Source: Ferroacidibacillus organovorans
GTDB taxonomy: Bacteria > Bacillota > Bacilli > Alicyclobacillales > SLC66
Direction: 5' to 3'
Assembly: GCF_001642725.1 (NCBI RefSeq)
Contig: NZ_LSUQ01000021.1
Span: 1 to 43,427 of the forward strand
Length of the DNA: 43,427 bases
Under the pieces are notes generated by a model that searched no databases, was not told where the DNA came from, and saw nothing but the letters and a program-made list of their open reading frames with translations. Each line of letters opens with the position of its first letter. Positions within the stretch are counted from its first letter, which is position 1. The position numbers and the translations under genes are program-made. This document shows, one piece after another, positions 130-10,243 of this stretch.

Positions 130-1641
130 TCAAGCGCGGTAGTCACTGCGCGTTCGCGCTACAGCCGACGTCCATCCCTGCCACAGCGCTTCGCGCGGCC
201 CGTGCTCCATGAGCGGACTAAACCTGCGCTCTGCGGCCCAGTGCTTTGCGATTTCTTCACGGGAGTCCCAGTAACCGACCGCCAAACCCGCCAGGTACGC
301 GGCGCCAAGCGCTGTAATCTCGCGAATGCGCGCACGCTCGACAGGCGCGCCAAGCAGATCTGCTTGAAACTGCATCAACAGGTTATTATCGGCCGCCCCC
401 CCATCCACGCGCAGCGTAGACAGCGCAAGACCTGCGTCCCGCTCCATCGCATCAAGCACATCCCGCGTCTGATACGCGAGGGATTCAAGCGTCGCACGCA
501 CGATGTGCGCTTGTGTCGTACCGCGCGTCAATCCGTAGATTGCCCCGCGCGCGTCCATATCCCAATACGGTGCGCCAAGCCCGACAAACGCTGGAACAAC
601 ATATACCCCTTCCGAACTCACGATCGACCTTGCAATCCGCTCCGAATCTGCGCTCGTCTCAAGGATCTTGAGCCCGTCGCGCAACCACTGAATCGCCGCC
701 CCCGCCATAAACACACTGCCTTCGAGCGCATACTCCACCCGCCCGCCGATCGACCACGCGACCGTCGTCAGCAACCCGTGCGCAGAGCGAATCCGCCGCT
801 CGCCCGTGTTCATCAACAAAAAACAGCCCGTCCCATAGGTGTTTTTGACCATGCCCGGCGCAAAGCACGCCTGTCCGAAAAGAGCAGCGTGCTGATCTCC
901 CGCCACCCCAGCAATTGGAACGACAGCGCCGCCCGTAATCGCCGCGTCAAGATTTCCGTATCGCTCACTTGACGAGCGGATCTCTGGCATCATGCAAGAG
1001 GGGATCGCCAAGAGCGAAAGCAGGTCATCGTCCCACGAGCCTGTCTCAAGGTTGTAAAGCATCGTGCGCGACGCGTTGGTGTGATCCGTCGCGTGCAGAT
1101 TCCCACCAGTCAAATGATAAATAAGCCACGTGTCCATCGTGCCAAACAGGATTTCTCCGCGTTCTGCCCGTTTCTGTCCATCAGGAATGGCGTCTAGCAA
1201 CCAGCGAATCTTGGTCGCCGAGAAATACGCGTCAACGACCAGCCCCGTTTTATCGCGCACCATCGCCTCATTTCCTGCTGCCCGCAATTGGTCGCAGATT
1301 TCAGAGGTCTGCCTGCTCTGCCAGACGATCGCGCGATGGAGCGGTCGGCCTGTCGAGCGTTCAAACAAGACGGTGGTCTCCCGCTGATTTGTGATTCCAA
1401 CACCCGCCAAGTCTGAATACGCGACGCCCGCCGACGCGAGCGCGTCCCTCATCACAGCGAGCACACCTTCCCAGATCTCGTCGGCGTCATGCTCCACCCA
1501 GCCTGGTTTTGGAAAGTACTGCGCAAACTCTTTCTTGGCCATCCCGCGAATCGTTCCACGCCGATCGAAGATCATGGCCCTGGTGCTCGTCGTTCCTTGA
1601 TCAATGGCGAGAATAAAAGATTCACACCGATCGCTCATCAT
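130..1641 (-). CDS. glpK: glycerol kinase
   Basis: FGGY kinase motifs [59 protein letters not shown]. Start placed at ATG 1641 (or 1638), overlapping the upstream gene's TGA (ATGA). Confidence 0.95.
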
Positions 1642-2927
1642 TCGCCCGCCCCTTTTGAGCCCGTATTCTTGCGATGCATCATTCGGTGAAACCATTCGCC
1701 AACGCCTATCCATCCCGAACCTGCAAAAAGGGCGAACATCGGCATCATCGGATAGCGAAAGCGACTCCAGGCGGGAAATGCCAGAAAAATGACCGTGTCA
1801 TAAAAGAGATAGAGAATCACCATCTGCAAGGCGAACTTCGCAGCGGCAGAAAGGTTTCGCCTTACGAAAAATCCGATCAGAGCGAAAATCATAAAACCGT
1901 AGTAGGCATACGTGTCAAAGCGCCGCCAGTTCTCAATCACAGGAAAAGGAACATGCGGAAGCTGCGCCAAGAAGGTGTAATGCACGGCGTTTTGATCCGA
2001 CGCATACAAGTTCCTGATCTTATAAAGTCCATTCTCAAAAAAATTGAGCGGATGATGAAACAGGTAGCGAAAGAATGCGTTCATGCCAATCGCATTCTCC
2101 TTGATCTCATTTCCGTGCGCTGCGAGCAGCGGATTTTGTGCAGGATTCCACAGCCAATAAAAGCCTTTGTTCGCGTAGATTCCCTGCCAAAGGTTCACCC
2201 CGCCGTTTGTCGAAATAAGAATGAGATGATGCATCGCGATCCAGTTGCGCAAGGTGACTGGCAGGATTGCAAAGGCCATCCCCGCCAACACATAAATGAG
2301 CACGCGCGAGTAAAATCGCCACTGCACACGCCGCCAGATCACAGCGATTCCCCACGCCATAAACGGAAAAAGAAGTGGGATCGGACGCACGTCGCAGGCC
2401 ACGCCAAGCACCACACCCGCACTCCCATAAGCGACCCATGGTCTGCGCATGGCGCTCGCCGGGATCGTAAAGATCGCCAGGAAGATCATCAAGAGAATGG
2501 TGAACAATTCTTCCGAGCCAAGTACTGCATTCCACTGGATTTGACTTGGTAACGCGGTATACAATGCGGCAGCGGCGAGCGCGACGCCCTTGCGCGCAAA
2601 AATGCGAAACGCCAGCACATAGGTGAGCGCGACAATCCCGACGCTCAAAAGCGCATTCGTAATAAGTCCCACCCAAACGGTTTGCGGAAACACGCGATAG
2701 ATCAAAGACAAAAAGAACGGATACCCAATCGGCCAGTATGCGGTGTAGCCGCCCGTCGCACGCCGATACCCAAGCCCTTTTGCAAGGTCGACGGCGTGAT
2801 AAAAATACCAGGCAAAGTCCTCCGACTGCGGCGGGTGCATCCACGCCAAAAAACCGAAACGCAAAACCAGATTGAGCAAAAGAAGCCACAAGAGCCCGCC
2901 GTGATTCGCAATACCTCGGTTACGCAA
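1638..2927 (-). CDS. multi-pass membrane glycosyltransferase, GT-C fold (ArnT/PMT/family 39-like)
   Basis: Many hydrophobic segments, N-terminal periplasmic-type loop with ED...[18 protein letters not shown]...[12 protein letters not shown] and C-terminal RFRYP, typical of GT-C enzymes. TTG start uncertain. Confidence 0.7.
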
Positions 2928-3123: not shown

Positions 3124-3173
3124 AGCCTCATCGTACAGATGGACAGGCTGGCATGAAACAGGAGGATACCCAC

Positions 3174-4076
3174 GTGATCATTGGACTTATAGGACTCGGA
3201 AAAATGGGGTTTGCGCTCGGCGAACAAATGTTGGAAAAGGGGCACACCGTTCTCGCGACCGATGTGAGTGAGGCGTCGCGCGCCAGTTTTGAAGAAGTTG
3301 GCGGCAAAACGGTGCGCACTTCAGCCGAATTGGTCTCTTCGCTTCAGACTCCGCGCGTCGTATGGTTGATGGTTCCCCAAGGCAAGATCGTGGATCAAGT
3401 TTTGTCCGAAATGCTCCCTCGGCTCGACGCAGGTGACATTGTCATCGAGGCGGGAAACTCGCAGTACAAAGACAGCATGCGCCGCGCAAAAGAGGCCAGC
3501 GATCACGGGATCGCCTATCTCGATGTCGGCACATCCGGCGGCGTGGAGGGCGCACGCCACGGTGCGTGCTACATGATCGGCGGAGAAAAAGAAGCATTCC
3601 TGCGCGCGGAAGAACTCTTTTCAAGCACTGCCGTGAAGGGCGGCTATGCCTATGTCGGTCCATCCGGCAGCGGACACTACGCAAAAATGGTGCACAACGG
3701 CATCGAATACGGCATGATGGCCGCGATCGGCGAAGGGTTTGAGATCTTGCAAAAGAGCCCCTTTCCCTATGAATTAGGGGACGTGGCAAACGTGTTTACA
3801 AACGGCTCGGTCATCCGCGGGTGGCTGATGGACCTGACGGCGCGCGCCCTCGAAAAAGACCCGAACCTCACCTCCATTCGCGGTGTCATGCACTCTTCCG
3901 GCGAGGGCAAGTGGACACTCGAAGAAGCGCTTGACCTGCAGGTGGCATCGCCCGTGATCGCGCTGTCCCTGATGATGCGCTATCGCTCGCAAGAAACAGA
4001 TACCTTCACAGGCAAAGTAGTCGCGGCGCTGCGCAATGAGTTTGGCGGCCACGCCGTTGAAAAAGCGGGCGAGTAA
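3174..4076 (+). CDS. gnd: 6-phosphogluconate dehydrogenase, decarboxylating (short YqeC/GntZ type)
   Basis: GLIGLGKMG, VWLMVP, DVGTSGG, GHYAKMVHNGIEYG, SGEGKWT, ALRNEFGGH. GTG start 3174 after AGGAGG. Confidence 0.93.
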   Translation: MIIGLIGLGKMGFALGEQMLEKGHTVLATDVSEASRASFEEVGGKTVRTSAELVSSLQTPRVVWLMVPQGKIVDQVLSEMLPRLDAGDIVIEAGNSQYKDSMRRAKEASDHGIAYLDVGTSGGVEGARHGACYMIGGEKEAFLRAEELFSSTAVKGGYAYVGPSGSGHYAKMVHNGIEYGMMAAIGEGFEILQKSPFPYELGDVANVFTNGSVIRGWLMDLTARALEKDPNLTSIRGVMHSSGEGKWTLEEALDLQVASPVIALSLMMRYRSQETDTFTGKVVAALRNEFGGHAVEKAGE

Positions 4077-4083
4077 CCTCGCC

Positions 4084-4133
4084 AAAAAAAGGCCCCGCAT
4101 GGACGCAAGTTCACGTCCATGCGGGGCTTTTCT
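4084..4133. terminator. bidirectional intrinsic terminator
   Basis: 14-bp stem GCCCCGCATGGACG/CGTCCATGCGGGGC flanked by an A tract and TTTTCTT, between the convergent gnd and cyclase genes. Confidence 0.85.
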
Positions 4134-4145
4134 TACACCTGCGTG

Positions 4146-4790
4146 TTACGCACCCTCGCCTGCTGGCGCAGACAAGTCAAACAGTAACACGCGCGCCGGC
4201 GCCGCGTCGACGCCTTTTAAGCGAAGCGGTGCGCATACCATCAAGTAGTGGGCGGGAGGCACGGCGCCCAAGCGTAACCCTTCAAGAATCACTACGTTCG
4301 CTGAAAAGAGCGCCTTGTGCGTCGGATGCCCATCCTGGCTTCGCTCAATGCCGAGCGCATCAATGCCGACACCCGCGATGCCAATCTCCGCGAGAAACCT
4401 TGCACCGCTTTCCTTAAGAAAGACAAACCCCGGATCAAAACCTTCACGCGCTGAGTTGCGCGTCTGAAAAAGCAGGAATTCGCCCGCCTGTATCGTAAAT
4501 GGCTCAAGGTCTTCACGCGCAATCGCGTCTTCTACATGCGTGAGATTGAGCACGCGGCACGTCGTCACAAGGCGCTCCAAACCGATCGCCTCAATCGGCG
4601 CACCGCCTTCAACCATGTGCAGTGGCGCATCGACATGCGTGCCGGTATGCACGTCAAGAGACACGCGCGTCTCTTGAAAGCCATGCGTGGAAAACGCGGC
4701 CGTTTGCGCAAAGCTCGGCCGCTTCTCTTCCTTGTCCTTGTAGACCGCCATCTCTGTGACGATGTCCATGGATACGTCATAAAACCTCAC
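4146..4790 (-). CDS. cyclase family (KynB/kynurenine formamidase-like) metal-dependent hydrolase
   Basis: HTGTHVDAPLH signature, GVGIDALGIE, H-K-ALF, ILEGL, APARVLL. GTG start overlaps the zwf stop (GTGA). Confidence 0.85.
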   Translation of the reverse strand: MRFYDVSMDIVTEMAVYKDKEEKRPSFAQTAAFSTHGFQETRVSLDVHTGTHVDAPLHMVEGGAPIEAIGLERLVTTCRVLNLTHVEDAIAREDLEPFTIQAGEFLLFQTRNSAREGFDPGFVFLKESGARFLAEIGIAGVGIDALGIERSQDGHPTHKALFSANVVILEGLRLGAVPPAHYLMVCAPLRLKGVDAAPARVLLFDLSAPAGEGA

Positions 4791-6367
4791 GGTGCCACCT
4801 CCAGCGTGCGCGCCTGCTGGCGCAAGAGTTCATCTTCGACCGACGATGTGTCTTTCCCATAAACTGGCCACCAGCGATAGCCATCCTTTTCAACCAGCGC
4901 GTTTGCCAAATCCGGCCCCCACGTTCCCGCCTCATACGTTTCAAGTGGCGCAGCGCCCTCGCGAAACGCCTCGGCAATCGGATCGACAAACTTCCAGGCG
5001 AGCGACACCTCATCCCAGCGCGTAAAGAACGTCGAGTCGCCGCGCATCGCGTCATACAACAAGCGTTCGTACGCCTCTGGCGCGTTGTCCGCATCCTGGC
5101 TGAACTCCATCGCAATCGGGACGACTGACCCTTCTGTCCCCGGTTTTTTCGCGTTGAGCTGCATGTACATGCCTTCCGCCGGATTGACGCGAATCACGAG
5201 CAGGTTTGGCCCCAGTTGACCGTCGCGATTGAAGTACAGATCGCGCGGCATATCACGAAATTGAATGACAATCTCTGTGGACTTGAGCGCCATTCGCTTT
5301 CCTGTGCGCAGATAAAAGGGAACGCCTGCCCAGCGGAAATTATCGATAAAAAGGCGCGCCGCGACAAACGTCTCCGTCTGCGATGCTGCATTAACGCCGT
5401 GTTCTTGGCGATACCCAGGCAGTGTCTGCCCTTCTGCGCTTTTCACTCCCGCCGTGTACTGGCCGCGCACCACATTCTCTTTCACATCGTGTGGCCCATA
5501 GCGGCGCAGCGAGCGCAGCACCTTTACCTTTTCGTCGCGGATCGCCTCCGTTTTCAGACGACTGGGCGGCTCCATCGCAATCATCATGACCATTTGCAAC
5601 ATATGGTTTTGCACCATGTCCCGCAGCGCCCCGGAGCCTTCGTAATACGAGGCGCGATCTTCCACGCCCACCGTTTCGCTGGATGTGATCTGAACGTTTG
5701 CAATGGATCGATTGTTCCAGAGCGGCTCGAACATCGAGTTTGCAAAGCGGATGACCTCGATGTTTTGCACCATCTCCTTGCCAAGATAGTGATCGATCCG
5801 ATAGATGTCCTCCTCTGCAAACGCCTGGCGCAACTGTTCATTGAGCGCCTGCGCCGTCTCAAAATCGCGACCAAACGGCTTCTCAATGATCAGTCGGCAA
5901 AATCCGGGCGACTGAGACAGTCCACACGCCGCGATGGAGAGTGCGACATCCCCGAAAAACTCAGGGGCCATCGCCAAGTAAAACAAGCGATTCGGTGTGC
6001 GTCCGTCGCGCTCCAACTCCCGCACGCGCTCGTGCAGCGTGGTGTAGTCAACTTTTCGGTCAGCGTGCACAGCCTGATAGTGCAGGCGCTTGGCGAAAGC
6101 AGGGAAACCAACGAGATCCTGCTCGCTAAGCTTTCCGTACGTTAGCAGCGCCTGTCTTACCTCGCTGACAAACGCTTCGTCCGAAAGCGCGCGCCGCGCG
6201 GTGCCGACGATGCTTACGCGCTCAGGGAGCATGTCTCGCATGTACATGTGATAGAGGGCTGGATAGAGTTTTCGCCGCGCGAGATCGCCCGTTGCGCCAA
6301 AGAGGACGAGTGTATGTTCTGGAGCCAAACCTTCGATTGTATGAATTTCATTCATCTCGTTTACCAA
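4787..6367 (-). CDS. zwf: glucose-6-phosphate 1-dehydrogenase
   Basis: GATGDLARRKLYP, IEKPFG, RIDHYLGKE, DMVQNH, RWAGVPFYLRTGK, AYERLL. TTG start after AAAGGGAG. Confidence 0.96.
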   Translation of the reverse strand: MVNEMNEIHTIEGLAPEHTLVLFGATGDLARRKLYPALYHMYMRDMLPERVSIVGTARRALSDEAFVSEVRQALLTYGKLSEQDLVGFPAFAKRLHYQAVHADRKVDYTTLHERVRELERDGRTPNRLFYLAMAPEFFGDVALSIAACGLSQSPGFCRLIIEKPFGRDFETAQALNEQLRQAFAEEDIYRIDHYLGKEMVQNIEVIRFANSMFEPLWNNRSIANVQITSSETVGVEDRASYYEGSGALRDMVQNHMLQMVMMIAMEPPSRLKTEAIRDEKVKVLRSLRRYGPHDVKENVVRGQYTAGVKSAEGQTLPGYRQEHGVNAASQTETFVAARLFIDNFRWAGVPFYLRTGKRMALKSTEIVIQFRDMPRDLYFNRDGQLGPNLLVIRVNPAEGMYMQLNAKKPGTEGSVVPIAMEFSQDADNAPEAYERLLYDAMRGDSTFFTRWDEVSLAWKFVDPIAEAFREGAAPLETYEAGTWGPDLANALVEKDGYRWWPVYGKDTSSVEDELLRQQARTLEVAP

Positions 6368-6486: not shown

Positions 6487-7662
6487 TTATCTCGACGCGA
6501 ACGAGGCAAACGCATTCGCCACCGTCTCCACGTCTTCACGCGTATGATCTGCGGTTACCGTCAGACGAATGCGCGATGTGCCTTCAGGGACGCTTGGCGG
6601 CCGGATTGCCGGCGCAAAAACACCCATTTGATCCAGGTGCGCGCTGAGCGCAAGCGCCGCACCAGCGTCCCCGATGCGAACAGGGATAATCGGCGTAATC
6701 CCTTGCGATGCCGCAAACCCACGCGCTTGCAGCGCCATTCGCAATTCGCGTGCACGACTGTGCATACGCTCTCGGCGCTCTGATTCATCTGCCGCAATGT
6801 GCAGCGCGGCGTGCGCACCCGCGATCACTGCAGGACTGAGCGCGGTCGAAAACATAAACGGTCGCGCCGCCTGACGAAGCCATGCGATAAGCGTCTGCGC
6901 ACCCGCCACATAACCGCCCTCACTGCCCAATGCCTTCGAGAGTGTCCCCACATGCAAGTCAATCTCGTGTGCGGCCATGCCAAAATGCGCGGCCGTCCCT
7001 TCACCGCGCGGACCGAGCACACCTGTCGCATGTGCGTCATCAACGATCAAAAGTGCATTCCACGCACGTTTTAGGCGCACCAAATCTGCAAGCGGCGCGA
7101 GATCCCCATCCATCGAGAAGACACCGTCCGTGACAATGATGCGAAGACCAGAAACAGGCGTCACCCGCAACTTCTCCTCAAGATCGCTCACATCACCGTG
7201 TCTGTACACGACCACACGCGCCCGACTCATGCGACACCCGTCAATCAGACTTGCGTGGTTCAGTTCATCTGAAAATAGGACATCCCCTTCGCGCGCAAAC
7301 GTCGTCATGACAGCCAAATTCGCCATGTAGCCTGTATTGAAAAGAAGCGCCGCATCCGTGCCGCGATGTTTTGCGAGCGCAATTTCCAGTTGCTCGTGAA
7401 GCGCGCTGTGTCCTGTCGTCATGCGCGAACCGGTCGAGCCAAGCCCATGCGTCTCAAGCGCGCCCTGCGCCGCCGCGCGGACGCGCGGATGATGCGCCAG
7501 CCCCAAATAATTGTTGGACGCGCAAAGCAGGACGACCCGGTCATCGCGCAGTGCGGTGCGCCCATCCAGCACGCGAAGCGCGCGCAACGCACGCGTCCGT
7601 CCCGCTTGCTCGATGGTTTCTAAAACGGTTACTGCACGCTCTGTCCAAGCGCTGGCGCTCAT
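6487..7662 (-). CDS. bioF: 8-amino-7-oxononanoate synthase (PLP alpha-oxoamine synthase)
   Basis: SNNYLGL, GYMAN, NHASLIDG, DGVFSMDGD, DDAH, GTLSKALG (PLP lysine), AIRPPSVP. Confidence 0.85.
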   Translation of the reverse strand: MSASAWTERAVTVLETIEQAGRTRALRALRVLDGRTALRDDRVVLLCASNNYLGLAHHPRVRAAAQGALETHGLGSTGSRMTTGHSALHEQLEIALAKHRGTDAALLFNTGYMANLAVMTTFAREGDVLFSDELNHASLIDGCRMSRARVVVYRHGDVSDLEEKLRVTPVSGLRIIVTDGVFSMDGDLAPLADLVRLKRAWNALLIVDDAHATGVLGPRGEGTAAHFGMAAHEIDLHVGTLSKALGSEGGYVAGAQTLIAWLRQAARPFMFSTALSPAVIAGAHAALHIAADESERRERMHSRARELRMALQARGFAASQGITPIIPVRIGDAGAALALSAHLDQMGVFAPAIRPPSVPEGTSRIRLTVTADHTREDVETVANAFASFASR

Positions 7663-7692
7663 TCTGTCAATCCCTTTCTTTAACACAGAAGC

Positions 7693-9235: not shown

Positions 9236-10069
9236 TCAAAAGTTCACATTGTACGGGTCATACTCAAAGCTGCGTTTGTTTTCATTAAGTGCATCGATGC
9301 GCGCTACCTCATCCGCCGTCAATGAAAAGTCAAACAGGTTCGCATTTTCCGCGATCCGCTCTCTGTGCACGGACTTTGGAATCGTGACAACCCCTTTTTC
9401 AAGGTCCCAGCGCAGCACAATTTGCGCAGGCGTCTTTCCATACTTCTCGCTCAGTTCAACGATGACCGGCTTTGTGAGCAATTCTCCACCGCGCATGAGC
9501 GGTGACCACGCTTCCATCTGAATGCCTTCTTTTTTGCAGAAATCGTAGATCGGCTGCTCCGTCAAAAGAGGATGAAACTCCACCTGATTGACCATCGGCT
9601 TGATCGTTCCATTTTTCATCACATCTTCCAAGTGCTCGACCTGAAAGTTGCTCACGCCAATCGCGCGCACGCGCCCGTCACGGTAAAGCTTTTCAAGCGC
9701 CCGCCACGTGTCATTGTATTTTCCCGCAATCGCCCAGTGAATCAGGTAAAGATCAAGATACTCAAGCCCGAGTTTCGCCATGCTCTCATCAAACGCTGCG
9801 AGCGTGGACTCATAGCCTTGACGCGCGTTCCACACTTTCGTCGTGATAAAGAGATCTTCACGTTTCGCGCCGCTGTCCTTGATCGCTGCGCCAACCCCGA
9901 CCTCATTGCCATAGATCGCCGCCGTGTCGATACTACGGTAACCAAGCTCAATCGCCGCGCGCACAGCCTGCTCAACTTCTTGGCCATCCTTTGCCTGCCA
10001 AACACCAAGTCCTACCCATGGCATTTTTATTCCATTATGGAGTGTTGTGCAATCTGCGAGATTTTTCAT
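9236..10069 (-). CDS. aldo/keto reductase (YvgN/YtbE-like, AKR5)
   Basis: GLGVW, IDTAAIYGNE, FITTKVWN, YLDLYLIHW, AIGVSNF, IPKS. ATG after GAGGAGG. Confidence 0.93.
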   Translation of the reverse strand: MKNLADCTTLHNGIKMPWVGLGVWQAKDGQEVEQAVRAAIELGYRSIDTAAIYGNEVGVGAAIKDSGAKREDLFITTKVWNARQGYESTLAAFDESMAKLGLEYLDLYLIHWAIAGKYNDTWRALEKLYRDGRVRAIGVSNFQVEHLEDVMKNGTIKPMVNQVEFHPLLTEQPIYDFCKKEGIQMEAWSPLMRGGELLTKPVIVELSEKYGKTPAQIVLRWDLEKGVVTIPKSVHRERIAENANLFDFSLTADEVARIDALNENKRSFEYDPYNVNF

Positions 10070-10243
10070 AAAAGTTCCTCCTCGAGTGATCTCTAGGTGT
10101 TCCCAAGCCATAAGGTATAGCCTACACAAATTGACGTGCGTTGTACACTAAGAAAAGAACAGTACGCCGCCAGGTCGATTAAAATGCACAACAAAACGGC
10201 GCGCGCTTTACAGAATAAAAGCCATTCTAAGGAGGGATTCACC

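Follow-up and report, generated by a model that had tools for sequence, protein, structure and literature searches.

Although the oxidative pentose phosphate pathway belongs to textbook central metabolism, many Bacilli have no gene assigned to its second step. The lactone concerned, 6-phosphogluconolactone, also hydrolyses spontaneously, so that the step does not strictly need a dedicated enzyme. The 6-phosphogluconolactonases (Pgl) already described are of two types. Those of the YkgB/YbhE type (PF10282) are metal-independent beta-propellers of ~340 aa; those of the DevB type (PF01182, TIGR01198) have a NagB-like fold. The protein considered here, a metal enzyme of 214 aa belonging to the cyclase family (PF04199), is proposed to catalyse the same reaction as both and fills the same slot as YkgB in the genome inventory, but it has no sequence or fold relation to the beta-propellers and its fold is equally unrelated to that of DevB. 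With the DevB type it also shares the fusion to a neighbouring pathway enzyme: eukaryotic G6PD::6PGL fusions are reported from Plasmodium and Giardia. Two metabolic-model papers give Geobacillus and Parageobacillus no 6PGL gene and write the step as a pseudo-reaction, spontaneous hydrolysis being assumed.

Within PF04199, the kynurenine formamidase KynB (TIGR03035; structures 4CO9, 4COB, 4COG) resembles our protein in fold (Foldseek TM 0.86-0.87, 24-27% identity), in the HxGTHxDxPxH motif, in its His/Glu metal ligands and in length (~210 aa). Other members use the same scaffold for the metal-dependent hydrolysis of lactams, esters or lactones: the isatin (lactam) hydrolase, the Mn-stimulated carboxylesterase MGS0169 and the trans-dienelactone hydrolase, all three precedents cited in PMC5341072, and the cyclase-phosphotriesterase 8F9X. 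They differ from it by an identity of only 16-24% and none is tied to the pentose phosphate pathway; MGS0169, in the same text, has in addition a modified Gln-Gln-Asp-His motif. Three structures, on the other hand, are those of orthologues and show no difference in kind from our protein: 1R61 and 3KRV of Geobacillus stearothermophilus (238 bits, 53-56% identity by Foldseek) and 8HMO of Bacillus smithii (216 bits), the whole set lying at 49-56% identity and TM 0.85-0.92 to its AF2 model (pLDDT 92.5). All three are without assigned function: PMC4243253 gives 1R61 as having no publications, 3KRV is an uncharacterized predicted hydrolase according to PMC5341072, and the title of 8HMO mentions a manganese complex.

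The zwf, cyclase and gnd genes of Ferroacidibacillus organovorans

The window, i.e. the whole stretch of 43,427 nucleotides analysed, carries three neighbouring genes at the positions given for them in a preliminary description of this DNA, and profile matches assign their families. The first, zwf (4787..6367, minus strand), encodes a glucose-6-phosphate dehydrogenase of 526 aa when read from TTG 6367, which has AGGGAG 6 nt 5' of it and an alternative ATG 4 codons inside; the protein scores 611.2 bits on TIGR00871 (cut-off 400.6) and matches PF00479 and PF02781. The second (4146..4790, minus strand, GTG start) encodes the 214-aa cyclase-family metal hydrolase that is our candidate 6-phosphogluconolactonase. 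PF04199 is its only Pfam match (78.1 bits, cut-off 23.1, profile positions 1-141 of 142); PF10282, PF01182 and TIGR01198 are unmatched. At 4787-4790 the minus strand reads GTGA, the start codon GTG of the cyclase gene sharing these letters with the stop codon TGA of zwf; the 4-nt overlap described earlier is thus real. Together with GGAGG and a 7-nt spacer it forms a putative translational-coupling junction (4787..4803, minus strand), this Shine-Dalgarno-like GGAGG sitting within the 3' end of zwf. The GTG start agrees with the N-termini of the orthologues, where D5 is invariant.

The third gene, gnd (3174..4076, plus strand), encodes a short-form decarboxylating 6-phosphogluconate dehydrogenase (TIGR00872 422.4 bits, cut-off 297.2). 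Its start is placed at GTG 3174, with AGGAGG 5' of it; an alternative ATG lies at 3153, in whose frame the TIGR00872 alignment begins at residue 10, corresponding to profile position 3. The convergent gnd and cyclase genes are separated by a single hairpin (4092..4127; -41.1 kcal/mol, z = -6.7 relative to shuffled sequences; 16-bp stem, 11 of its pairs being G-C), flanked on the plus strand by an A-run 5' and TTTTCTT 3', and on the minus strand by a T-run. This agrees with the common terminator proposed for the two genes.

As had been stated, pgl, kynA and kynU are absent from the window. There is no PF10282 match in the assembly as a whole (98 contigs, completeness 96.8%). Its sole PF01182 match, on another contig, was rejected as a DevB-type pgl: it reaches 71 bits on TIGR01198, below the cut-off of 124, and is nagB by TIGR00502 (270 bits, above cut-off).

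Linkage to zwf and distribution among Bacilli

The zwf-linked cyclases are a sharply separated orthologue group. Genome searches with the 214-aa protein are bimodal, orthologues scoring 154-271 bits at 49-64% identity (up to 66% for the group as a whole), and paralogues, including KynB, at most 92 bits at no more than 35% identity. Among the bearers of an orthologue are Alicyclobacillus, Brevibacillus, Paenibacillus, Sutcliffiella and Aeribacillus.

The conserved zwf-cyclase neighbourhood anticipated by the preliminary description is indeed found, in no fewer than six labelled families. Of the 80 genome loci, 75 have zwf no more than 5 kb from the orthologue: in 55 it is directly upstream on the same strand, the gap being at most 250 nt; in 18 it is upstream but separated by one or two genes; and in 2 it is divergent. 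The remaining five copies are unlinked and all belong to genomes carrying zwf elsewhere. Metagenomes supply an independent set of 80 loci: zwf is upstream in 49 of the 56 that have at least 1600 nt of upstream sequence (7 have no adjacent zwf), and 12 of the 24 with a short flank end in a partial zwf. The gnd gene appears in the flank of the orthologue less often (34/80 genome loci).

Some neighbourhoods hold further genes. A GFO/IDH/MocA oxidoreductase gene stands between zwf/gnd and the orthologue in Brevibacillus, and in B. fortis a true KynB gene is found just upstream of zwf; a simple three-step reading of the locus accounts for neither placement. At Ammoniphilus-type loci, which have no zwf, the genes after the orthologue encode enoyl-CoA hydratase and GNAT proteins.

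The tie to the pathway extends to fused proteins, each known from one or two metagenomic contigs and hence possibly an assembly or frameshift artefact, most so the single Zwf fusion. In P0186 (515 aa) and P0274 (512 aa), two divergent proteins, a short-form Gnd (NF007161 274 and 285 bits respectively, cut-off 271) is followed by a cyclase domain of the orthologue type at the C-terminus; P0234 is a cluster mate of P0274 from a second source, and a metagenome scan with P0274 found no relative. In P0278 (733 aa) a full Zwf is in frame with the cyclase domain, and P0279 is a GNAT-cyclase fusion. P0129/P0276 (326 aa) was not counted as a Zwf-cyclase fusion: its weak remnant of a Zwf C-terminus, in frame with the cyclase, scores 26 bits, below cut-off, and the case is ambiguous because an NCBI member of the same cluster has 207 aa.

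We then consider the phyletic pattern in 301 Bacilli genomes, whose relatedness makes them non-independent, so that Fisher P values overstate the association. Orthologues are present in 103, i.e. 101 by score plus two (G026 and G065) in which an intact, zwf-adjacent orthologue with an insertion of ~25 aa had been scored as two pieces. All 103 carriers have zwf, which is present in 196 genomes altogether; the orthologue is missing from all 105 zwf-less genomes, 8 of which have PF10282 genes. The orthologue also follows zwf in families where the latter is patchy (f15 1/23, f4 5/24, f5 4/15, f23 13/23). The 196 zwf genomes divide into 92 with the orthologue only, 93 with a PF10282 lactonase only, 11 with both and none with neither. 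The anti-correlation expected between the cyclase and YkgB-type pgl is thus nearly complete (exactly one of the two in 185/196), though not strict because of the 11 genomes with both. Lactonase-only and orthologue-bearing genomes coexist in 6 of the 35 families and in a single genus. A DevB-type pgl exceeds its cut-off in just 1/301; of the known Pgl types, this sample of Bacilli otherwise contains the YkgB type alone.

Linkage, dependence on zwf and fusions bind the cyclase to the Zwf and Gnd steps, they do not specify the exact reaction. The protein might serve Zwf in another way: by hydrolysing the gamma (1,4) lactone, a dead-end side product, by clearing 6-phosphogluconoyl adducts left by the reactive lactone, i.e. 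in the repair of metabolites or proteins, or by assisting G6PDH in the manner of OpcA. The 11 genomes with both genes, where the orthologue mostly still lies beside zwf, fit such a non-redundant role. Nevertheless a separate, extra role would not predict the complementarity with the YkgB type, especially the absence of any zwf genome deprived of both, and the intact metal site points to an enzyme rather than to a structural helper. We regard this possibility as rather unlikely. Another view is that the cyclase hydrolyses an unrelated polar or anionic substrate, e.g. another sugar-acid lactone or ester, and is co-regulated with zwf only because both serve one state of the cell, e.g. a demand for NADPH or the catabolism of sugar acids. 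The sugar dehydrogenase-like GFO/IDH/MocA gene directly 5' of the orthologue in Brevibacillus, the Ammoniphilus-type loci, the fusion P0279 and the broad ester, amide and phosphotriester activities of PF04199 members speak in this direction; it does not account for an orthologue found strictly with zwf, for its complementarity with Pgl or for fusions with Zwf as well as with Gnd, and we hold this second alternative to be decidedly improbable.

The active site and the separation from KynB

Databases give these proteins another name: UniRef, JGI and automatic cluster names read "Kynurenine formamidase" or "arylformamidase", and TIGR03035, the KynB equivalog, is indeed the best NCBIfam match of the 214-aa protein, at 104.9 bits against a cut-off of 223.05. 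True KynB proteins from the same class score 237-326 bits on this profile. In F. organovorans it is a second cyclase (222.9 bits) that groups with KynB; the genome has one kynureninase only, on contig 16, and a profile search found no tryptophan dioxygenase (PF03301) in it. In a quick ML tree one branch (SH-aLRT 99, stem of 2.36 changes per column) sets the 81 orthologues apart, and the 10 KynB form a separate group (SH-aLRT 96). The clades also differ in their neighbours, zwf/gnd for the first, kynA/kynU for the second: in the 11 paralogue loci scanned (locus L092 being left out), 7 house true KynB in kynU-kynB-kynA clusters, 4 of which belong to genomes also bearing the zwf-linked orthologue. 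The two coexist in these 4 genomes and do not group together, contrary to what would, by the preliminary description, have told against the lactonase, namely a place among bona fide KynB in a genome with kynA/kynU. Finally, 53 of the 77 genomes with only paralogues lack zwf (24 carry it), whereas no zwf-less genome has the orthologue. That the cyclase is a KynB lying beside zwf by chance, as its names, its kynureninase-bearing genome and its KynB-like fold and metal ligands could suggest, is in view of this score, this tree, these kyn clusters, this dependence on zwf and the altered pocket described below almost certainly wrong.

The motif H48-x-G-T-H52-x-D54-x-P-x-H58, with H158 and E170, is invariant in the alignment of 81 orthologues and 10 KynB, and H48, H52, D54, H58, H158 and E170 map to His50, His54, Asp56, His60, His161 and Glu173 of KynB. 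The pocket differs. The residues of the KynB wall given in PMC4243253, Trp20, Val42, Pro148/Ser149 and Leu158, align respectively with Y17, E40, L146/G147 and a gap, and the pocket residue Val40 (B. anthracis numbering) with position 38; the aromatic residue is therefore kept (Tyr17) and several hydrophobic ones are lost or become polar or charged. Charged or polar residues specific to the clade (K23, R42, R150, Q152 and R173) appear instead. K23, E40, R42, N112, R150 and Q152 do not vary among 48 orthologues, while K18, K20, K109 and R173 are conserved in at least 90%; position 109 is Q in the Ferroacidibacillus protein versus K in 95% of orthologues, and that of R173 is N in G065. As placed by alignment to the published KynB positions, rather than by coordinate distances, the hydrophobic pocket of KynB would thus have turned polar and cationic in the candidate, with the metal ligands retained.

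For a 6-phosphogluconolactonase, these features suggest the following course. A single mRNA would yield Zwf and the cyclase by coupled translation; the 6-phosphoglucono-1,5-lactone released by Zwf would be hydrolysed by the cyclase to 6-phosphogluconate, which would pass to the neighbouring Gnd. The metal centre (H48, H52, D54, H158, E170) may activate a water or hydroxide for the attack on the lactone carbonyl, H58 acting as general base as in KynB, and K18, K20, K23, E40, R42, N112, R150, Q152 and R173 might, in place of the hydrophobic wall, bind the sugar hydroxyls and the 6-phosphate. Gene order, overlap, orthologue group, phyletic pattern, fusions and the conservation of the metal ligands are observed; which substrate is used, what the cationic residues do and which metal serves in vivo is our inference.

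A candidate third class of 6-phosphogluconolactonase

The lactonase assignment proceeds by guilt by association, and as such it is strongly supported by comparative genomics. We give a probability of roughly 0.7 to the reading that the 214-aa protein is a metal-dependent (Mn2+ or Zn2+) 6-phosphogluconolactonase, a non-orthologous replacement of the YkgB/YbhE type. That the cyclase fills the missing lactonase step as a new class of Pgl, which was the central proposal of the preliminary description, is supported by the linkage, the phyletic pattern and the fusions taken together, and makes it a candidate. Its orthologue group would then probably be a third, structurally unrelated and metal-dependent Pgl class, and the candidate Pgl of about half of the zwf-carrying Bacilli sampled.

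Literature searches, with most subscription journals outside their coverage, found no paper linking PF04199 or the cyclase family to Pgl. Among the 40 best-ranked of 1,014 papers of 2019 and later on 6-phosphogluconolactonase none announced a new bacterial class, and searches for the metal-dependent hydrolase of Bacillus smithii, or for a cyclase family protein with zwf, found nothing.

If the assignment is true, the missing 6PGL gene of Geobacillus-type thermophiles is an annotation gap, three orphan crystal structures gain a function and thousands of "kynurenine formamidase" entries in databases are misnamed. A core pathway would also provide a clean example of non-orthologous gene displacement, and the reach of the PF04199 scaffold would extend to sugar-phosphate lactones. 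In practice, this would bear on flux models and on NADPH engineering in thermophilic production strains.

Organization and conservation of the zwf-cyclase locus

The profile matches confirm zwf, the cyclase gene and gnd, arranged as in the preliminary description. zwf lies at 4787..6367 on the minus strand (TIGR00871, 611.2 bits; cut-off 400.6), followed on the same strand by the PF04199 "cyclase" gene at 4146..4790, which encodes 214 aa (Pfam 78.1 bits). The short-form 6-phosphogluconate dehydrogenase gene, gnd, occupies 3174..4076 on the plus strand (TIGR00872, 422.4 bits; cut-off 297.2). Read on the minus strand, the zwf/cyclase junction is GGAGG, seven bases, then GTGA; the GTG start of the cyclase gene thus overlaps the TGA stop of zwf, as had been claimed, and its ribosome-binding site is inside the zwf 3' end. 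The terminator proposed to be common to the convergent cyclase and gnd genes was also found: a single hairpin at 4092-4127, with a 16-bp stem, -41.1 kcal/mol and z = -6.7, bordered by an A-run in 5' and a T-run in 3'. The flanking genes glpK (130..1713, minus strand; TIGR01311, 722 bits), bioF (6487..7686, minus; TIGR00858, 456 bits) and an aldo/keto reductase gene (9236..10129, minus) have no relation to the pentose phosphate pathway; for another gene (1638..2927, minus) the sole family match is a weak one to the glycosyltransferase PMT_2.

Compared with 301 genomes of the same class, the window protein gives two-peaked scores: its orthologues share 49-64% identity with it (154-271 bits), while the remaining matches stay at or below 35% and 92 bits. 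A quick maximum-likelihood tree was built from 81 orthologues, 10 KynB (kynurenine formamidase) and 3 other paralogues; in it, the orthologues form one side of a branch (SH-aLRT 99, stem of 2.36 changes per column) and KynB its own group (SH-aLRT 96). Since branching inside the orthologue clade roughly tracks the source labels Alicyclobacillaceae, Paenibacillus, Brevibacillus and Bacillaceae, the tree suggests a mainly vertical descent. The databases name these proteins "cyclase family protein", "kynurenine formamidase", "arylformamidase" or "predicted metal-dependent hydrolase"; the nearest named relative (95% identity) is from Ferroacidibacillus organovorans.

The linkage to zwf proved conserved in the neighbourhood survey that the preliminary description called for. 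Among 80 genome loci holding the best relatives of the window protein, zwf is within 5 kb of the orthologue in 75: immediately upstream in the same orientation, at most 250 nt away, in 55, upstream with one or two intervening genes in 18 (mostly Brevibacillus), and divergent in 2 (Sporosarcina). It is absent from the flank in the other 5, all from genomes carrying zwf elsewhere, 3 of which also have a PF10282 lactonase. A flanking gnd accompanies the orthologue at 34 of the 80 loci (15 short-form, 19 long-form). An independent sample of 80 metagenome loci agrees: 56 extend 1600 nt or more upstream, and 49 of these carry zwf, almost without exception in the same orientation and less than 100 nt away; among the 24 with a shorter flank, 12 have a partial zwf at the contig end. 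Some of these loci are gnd-zwf-cyclase operons.

In Brevibacillus the intervening genes are a GFO/IDH/MocA-family oxidoreductase, between zwf (or zwf-gnd) and the orthologue (locus L019 3931..5004; L025 3822..4979), and at times also gnd; the top NCBIfam matches of the oxidoreductase are xylose and inositol dehydrogenases, far under their cut-offs. In Brevibacillus fortis the order is kynB-zwf-GFO-cyclase orthologue, with a bona fide KynB (L025 1722..2366; TIGR03035, 283 bits) directly upstream of zwf; neither kynA nor kynU is among the ORFs scanned in this 10.6-kb stretch. Another cyclase-family match lies 3-5 kb away from the orthologue in several genomes of this genus (g32). In three loci of Ammoniphilus and a Brevibacillus sp. 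MAG where zwf is not adjacent (L069, L077, L015), enoyl-CoA hydratase and GNAT acetyltransferase genes come after the orthologue, together with a pyruvate phosphate dikinase-like gene in L069 and L077.

Complementary distribution of the orthologue and known lactonases

Two types of 6-phosphogluconolactonase (Pgl) are considered here, PF10282 and DevB. The PF10282 type is that of YbhE in E. coli and YkgB in B. subtilis, and the control matches for these two species agree with this assignment. In the Ferroacidibacillus assembly (98 contigs, 96.8% complete) PF10282 has no match, and PF01182 matches a single gene, nagB, which belongs to an amino-sugar cluster on a different contig from the window.

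In the 301-genome sample, 196 genomes have zwf (called at E 1e-60 or better), 112 a PF10282 lactonase (E 1e-20 or better), a single one a DevB-type pgl above its cut-off, and 101, by score, the orthologue. Two zwf genomes, G026 and G065, seemed at first to have neither orthologue nor PF10282; in each, zwf is immediately followed by an intact gene encoding 244 aa (L100 and L099 2374..3108 respectively, one genus). Its product keeps the motifs of the clade, and about 25 aa inserted between residues 88 and 102 had split the match into two pieces. In these two proteins N replaces R173, and the genomes are small (1.7-1.9 Mb). Counting both as orthologue carriers, the 196 zwf genomes divide into 92 with the orthologue only, 93 with PF10282 only, 11 with both and none with neither, a nearly complementary pattern that bears out the predicted anti-correlation with the ykgB-type pgl. 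Fisher P values of 5e-44 and 2e-25 overstate the case because related genomes are not independent.

The orthologue is in none of the 105 zwf-less genomes; as a control, zwf is present in 24 of 77 genomes carrying paralogues alone. Where only some genomes of a family have zwf, those and no others carry the orthologue: 1/23 in f15, 5/24 in f4, 4/15 in f5, 13/23 in f23, 8/11 in f29 and 4/5 in f13. Lactonase-only and orthologue-bearing genomes also co-occur within 6 of the 35 zwf-holding families and within one genus, g86; the pattern is more than two large clades. Strong PF10282 matches occur in 8 of the 105 zwf-less genomes (G018, G066, G135, G159, G183, G251, G260, G269), reflecting either another role of some family members or a lactone made by another dehydrogenase. 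PF10282 has no match in the genomes of Brevibacillus fortis, Bacillus fonticola, Sutcliffiella horikoshii and Melghirimyces profundicolus, and a weak, partial one (71.6 bits) in Aeribacillus pallidus. Given an association so tied to zwf, some hydrolytic role beside Zwf other than the lactonase step is conceivable, and we consider it unlikely.

Active site and separation from KynB

The metal ligands H48, H52, D54, H158 and E170, and H58, are invariant across orthologues and KynB, where they align with His50, His54, Asp56, His161, Glu173 and His60. According to a KynB study (PMC4243253), His60 bonds the bridging hydroxide, the hydrophobic pocket is walled by Trp20, His60 and Leu158 with Val40 and Val42 of the partner subunit, and Pro148 and Ser149 touch metal-bound waters. 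Mapped by sequence alignment alone, the pocket positions hold in the orthologues Y17, inside the conserved motif V-Y-K-N-K-x-E-K-x-P; E40, with an invariant R42 two residues on in the same strand; and L146 and G147, then the invariant E149, R150 and Q152. The Leu158 position is a one-residue gap, and R173 stands three residues past the Glu ligand. Because the ligands are invariant and the pocket positions changed, the orthologues are predicted to keep the catalytic machinery, with a cationic/polar pocket in place of much of the aromatic-binding one. Such a pocket would fit a sugar-phosphate lactone; an unrelated polar substrate is in our view rather improbable.

The AF2 model (pLDDT 92.5) superposes on 8HMO—by its title a manganese complex from Bacillus smithii—3KRV and 1R61 at TM 0.85-0.92. 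As PF04199 already includes, according to PMC5341072, a Mn-stimulated carboxylesterase, lactam (isatin) hydrolases and a trans-dienelactone hydrolase, lactone hydrolysis lies within the known chemistry of the scaffold.

That the window protein is itself KynB is very improbable: it scores 104.9 bits on TIGR03035 against a cut-off of 223.05. Eight of 11 paralogues scanned (12 loci fetched, L092 left out) exceed this cut-off (237-326 bits), and 7 of the 8 have kynU and kynA equivalogs on one or both sides. Four of these 7 genomes (G140, G273, G296, G203) also hold a zwf-linked orthologue. KynB and orthologue thus coexist with different neighbours and as separate groups, which answers the preliminary concern that the cyclase might cluster with true KynB in a kynA/kynU genome. 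In the Ferroacidibacillus assembly, tryptophan 2,3-dioxygenase (PF03301) has no match, and a 750-aa ORF on contig 16 (L002 1450..3702, minus strand) carries the one kynureninase (TIGR01814, 337 bits) as its C-terminal half, fused to an N-terminal half resembling aldo/keto reductase. Contig 3 has another cyclase-family gene (L005 1486..2130, plus strand; TIGR03035, 222.9 bits for a cut-off of 223.05), whose product clusters with KynB in the tree. This gene is not adjacent to kynA/kynU; it is flanked by an ECF-type transporter ATPase/permease fusion and by a gene that, judged by eye without family scan, resembles anthranilate-synthase component I.

A predicted 6-phosphogluconolactonase and its fusions

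Two metabolic-model papers describe Geobacillus and Parageobacillus as without a 6PGL gene and invoke spontaneous hydrolysis; a preprint, by its title, holds 6PGL critical to efficient pentose phosphate pathway function. The G. stearothermophilus protein of 1R61/3KRV, called uncharacterised in PMC4243253 and PMC5341072, is an orthologue (238 bits). The literature searched, with most subscription journals outside its coverage, yielded no publication assigning this PF04199 group as Pgl.

Searched with a profile, 1.84 billion representatives yielded 939 clusters with E 1e-30 or better, and several long proteins stood among the best 150. Two mutually divergent proteins, P0186 (515 aa) and P0274 (512 aa), join a complete short-form Gnd (274 and 285 bits on NF007161, cut-off 271) by a linker to an orthologue-type cyclase domain; P0234, from a different source, is a second member of the P0274 cluster. 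The search for longer relatives gave P0278 (733 aa), a full Zwf in frame with the cyclase domain, on one contig. With one or two metagenomic contigs behind each, the Gnd and Zwf fusions are provisional. P0279 (396 aa, one metagenomic contig) combines GNAT and cyclase domains, the protein being 49% identical to the window protein.

The conserved operon, the phyletic complementarity, the fusions and the remodelled pocket are four independent genomic lines that strongly support the proposal of the cyclase as the missing lactonase step, a new Pgl class. We predict from this genomic evidence, with a probability of about 0.7, that the window protein is a bona fide metal-dependent 6-phosphogluconolactonase. 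In the eukaryotic G6PD::6PGL proteins, a canonical 6PGL is likewise fused to a pathway enzyme. Here the partners of the cyclase domain are the maker of the lactone, Zwf, and the user of its product, Gnd.
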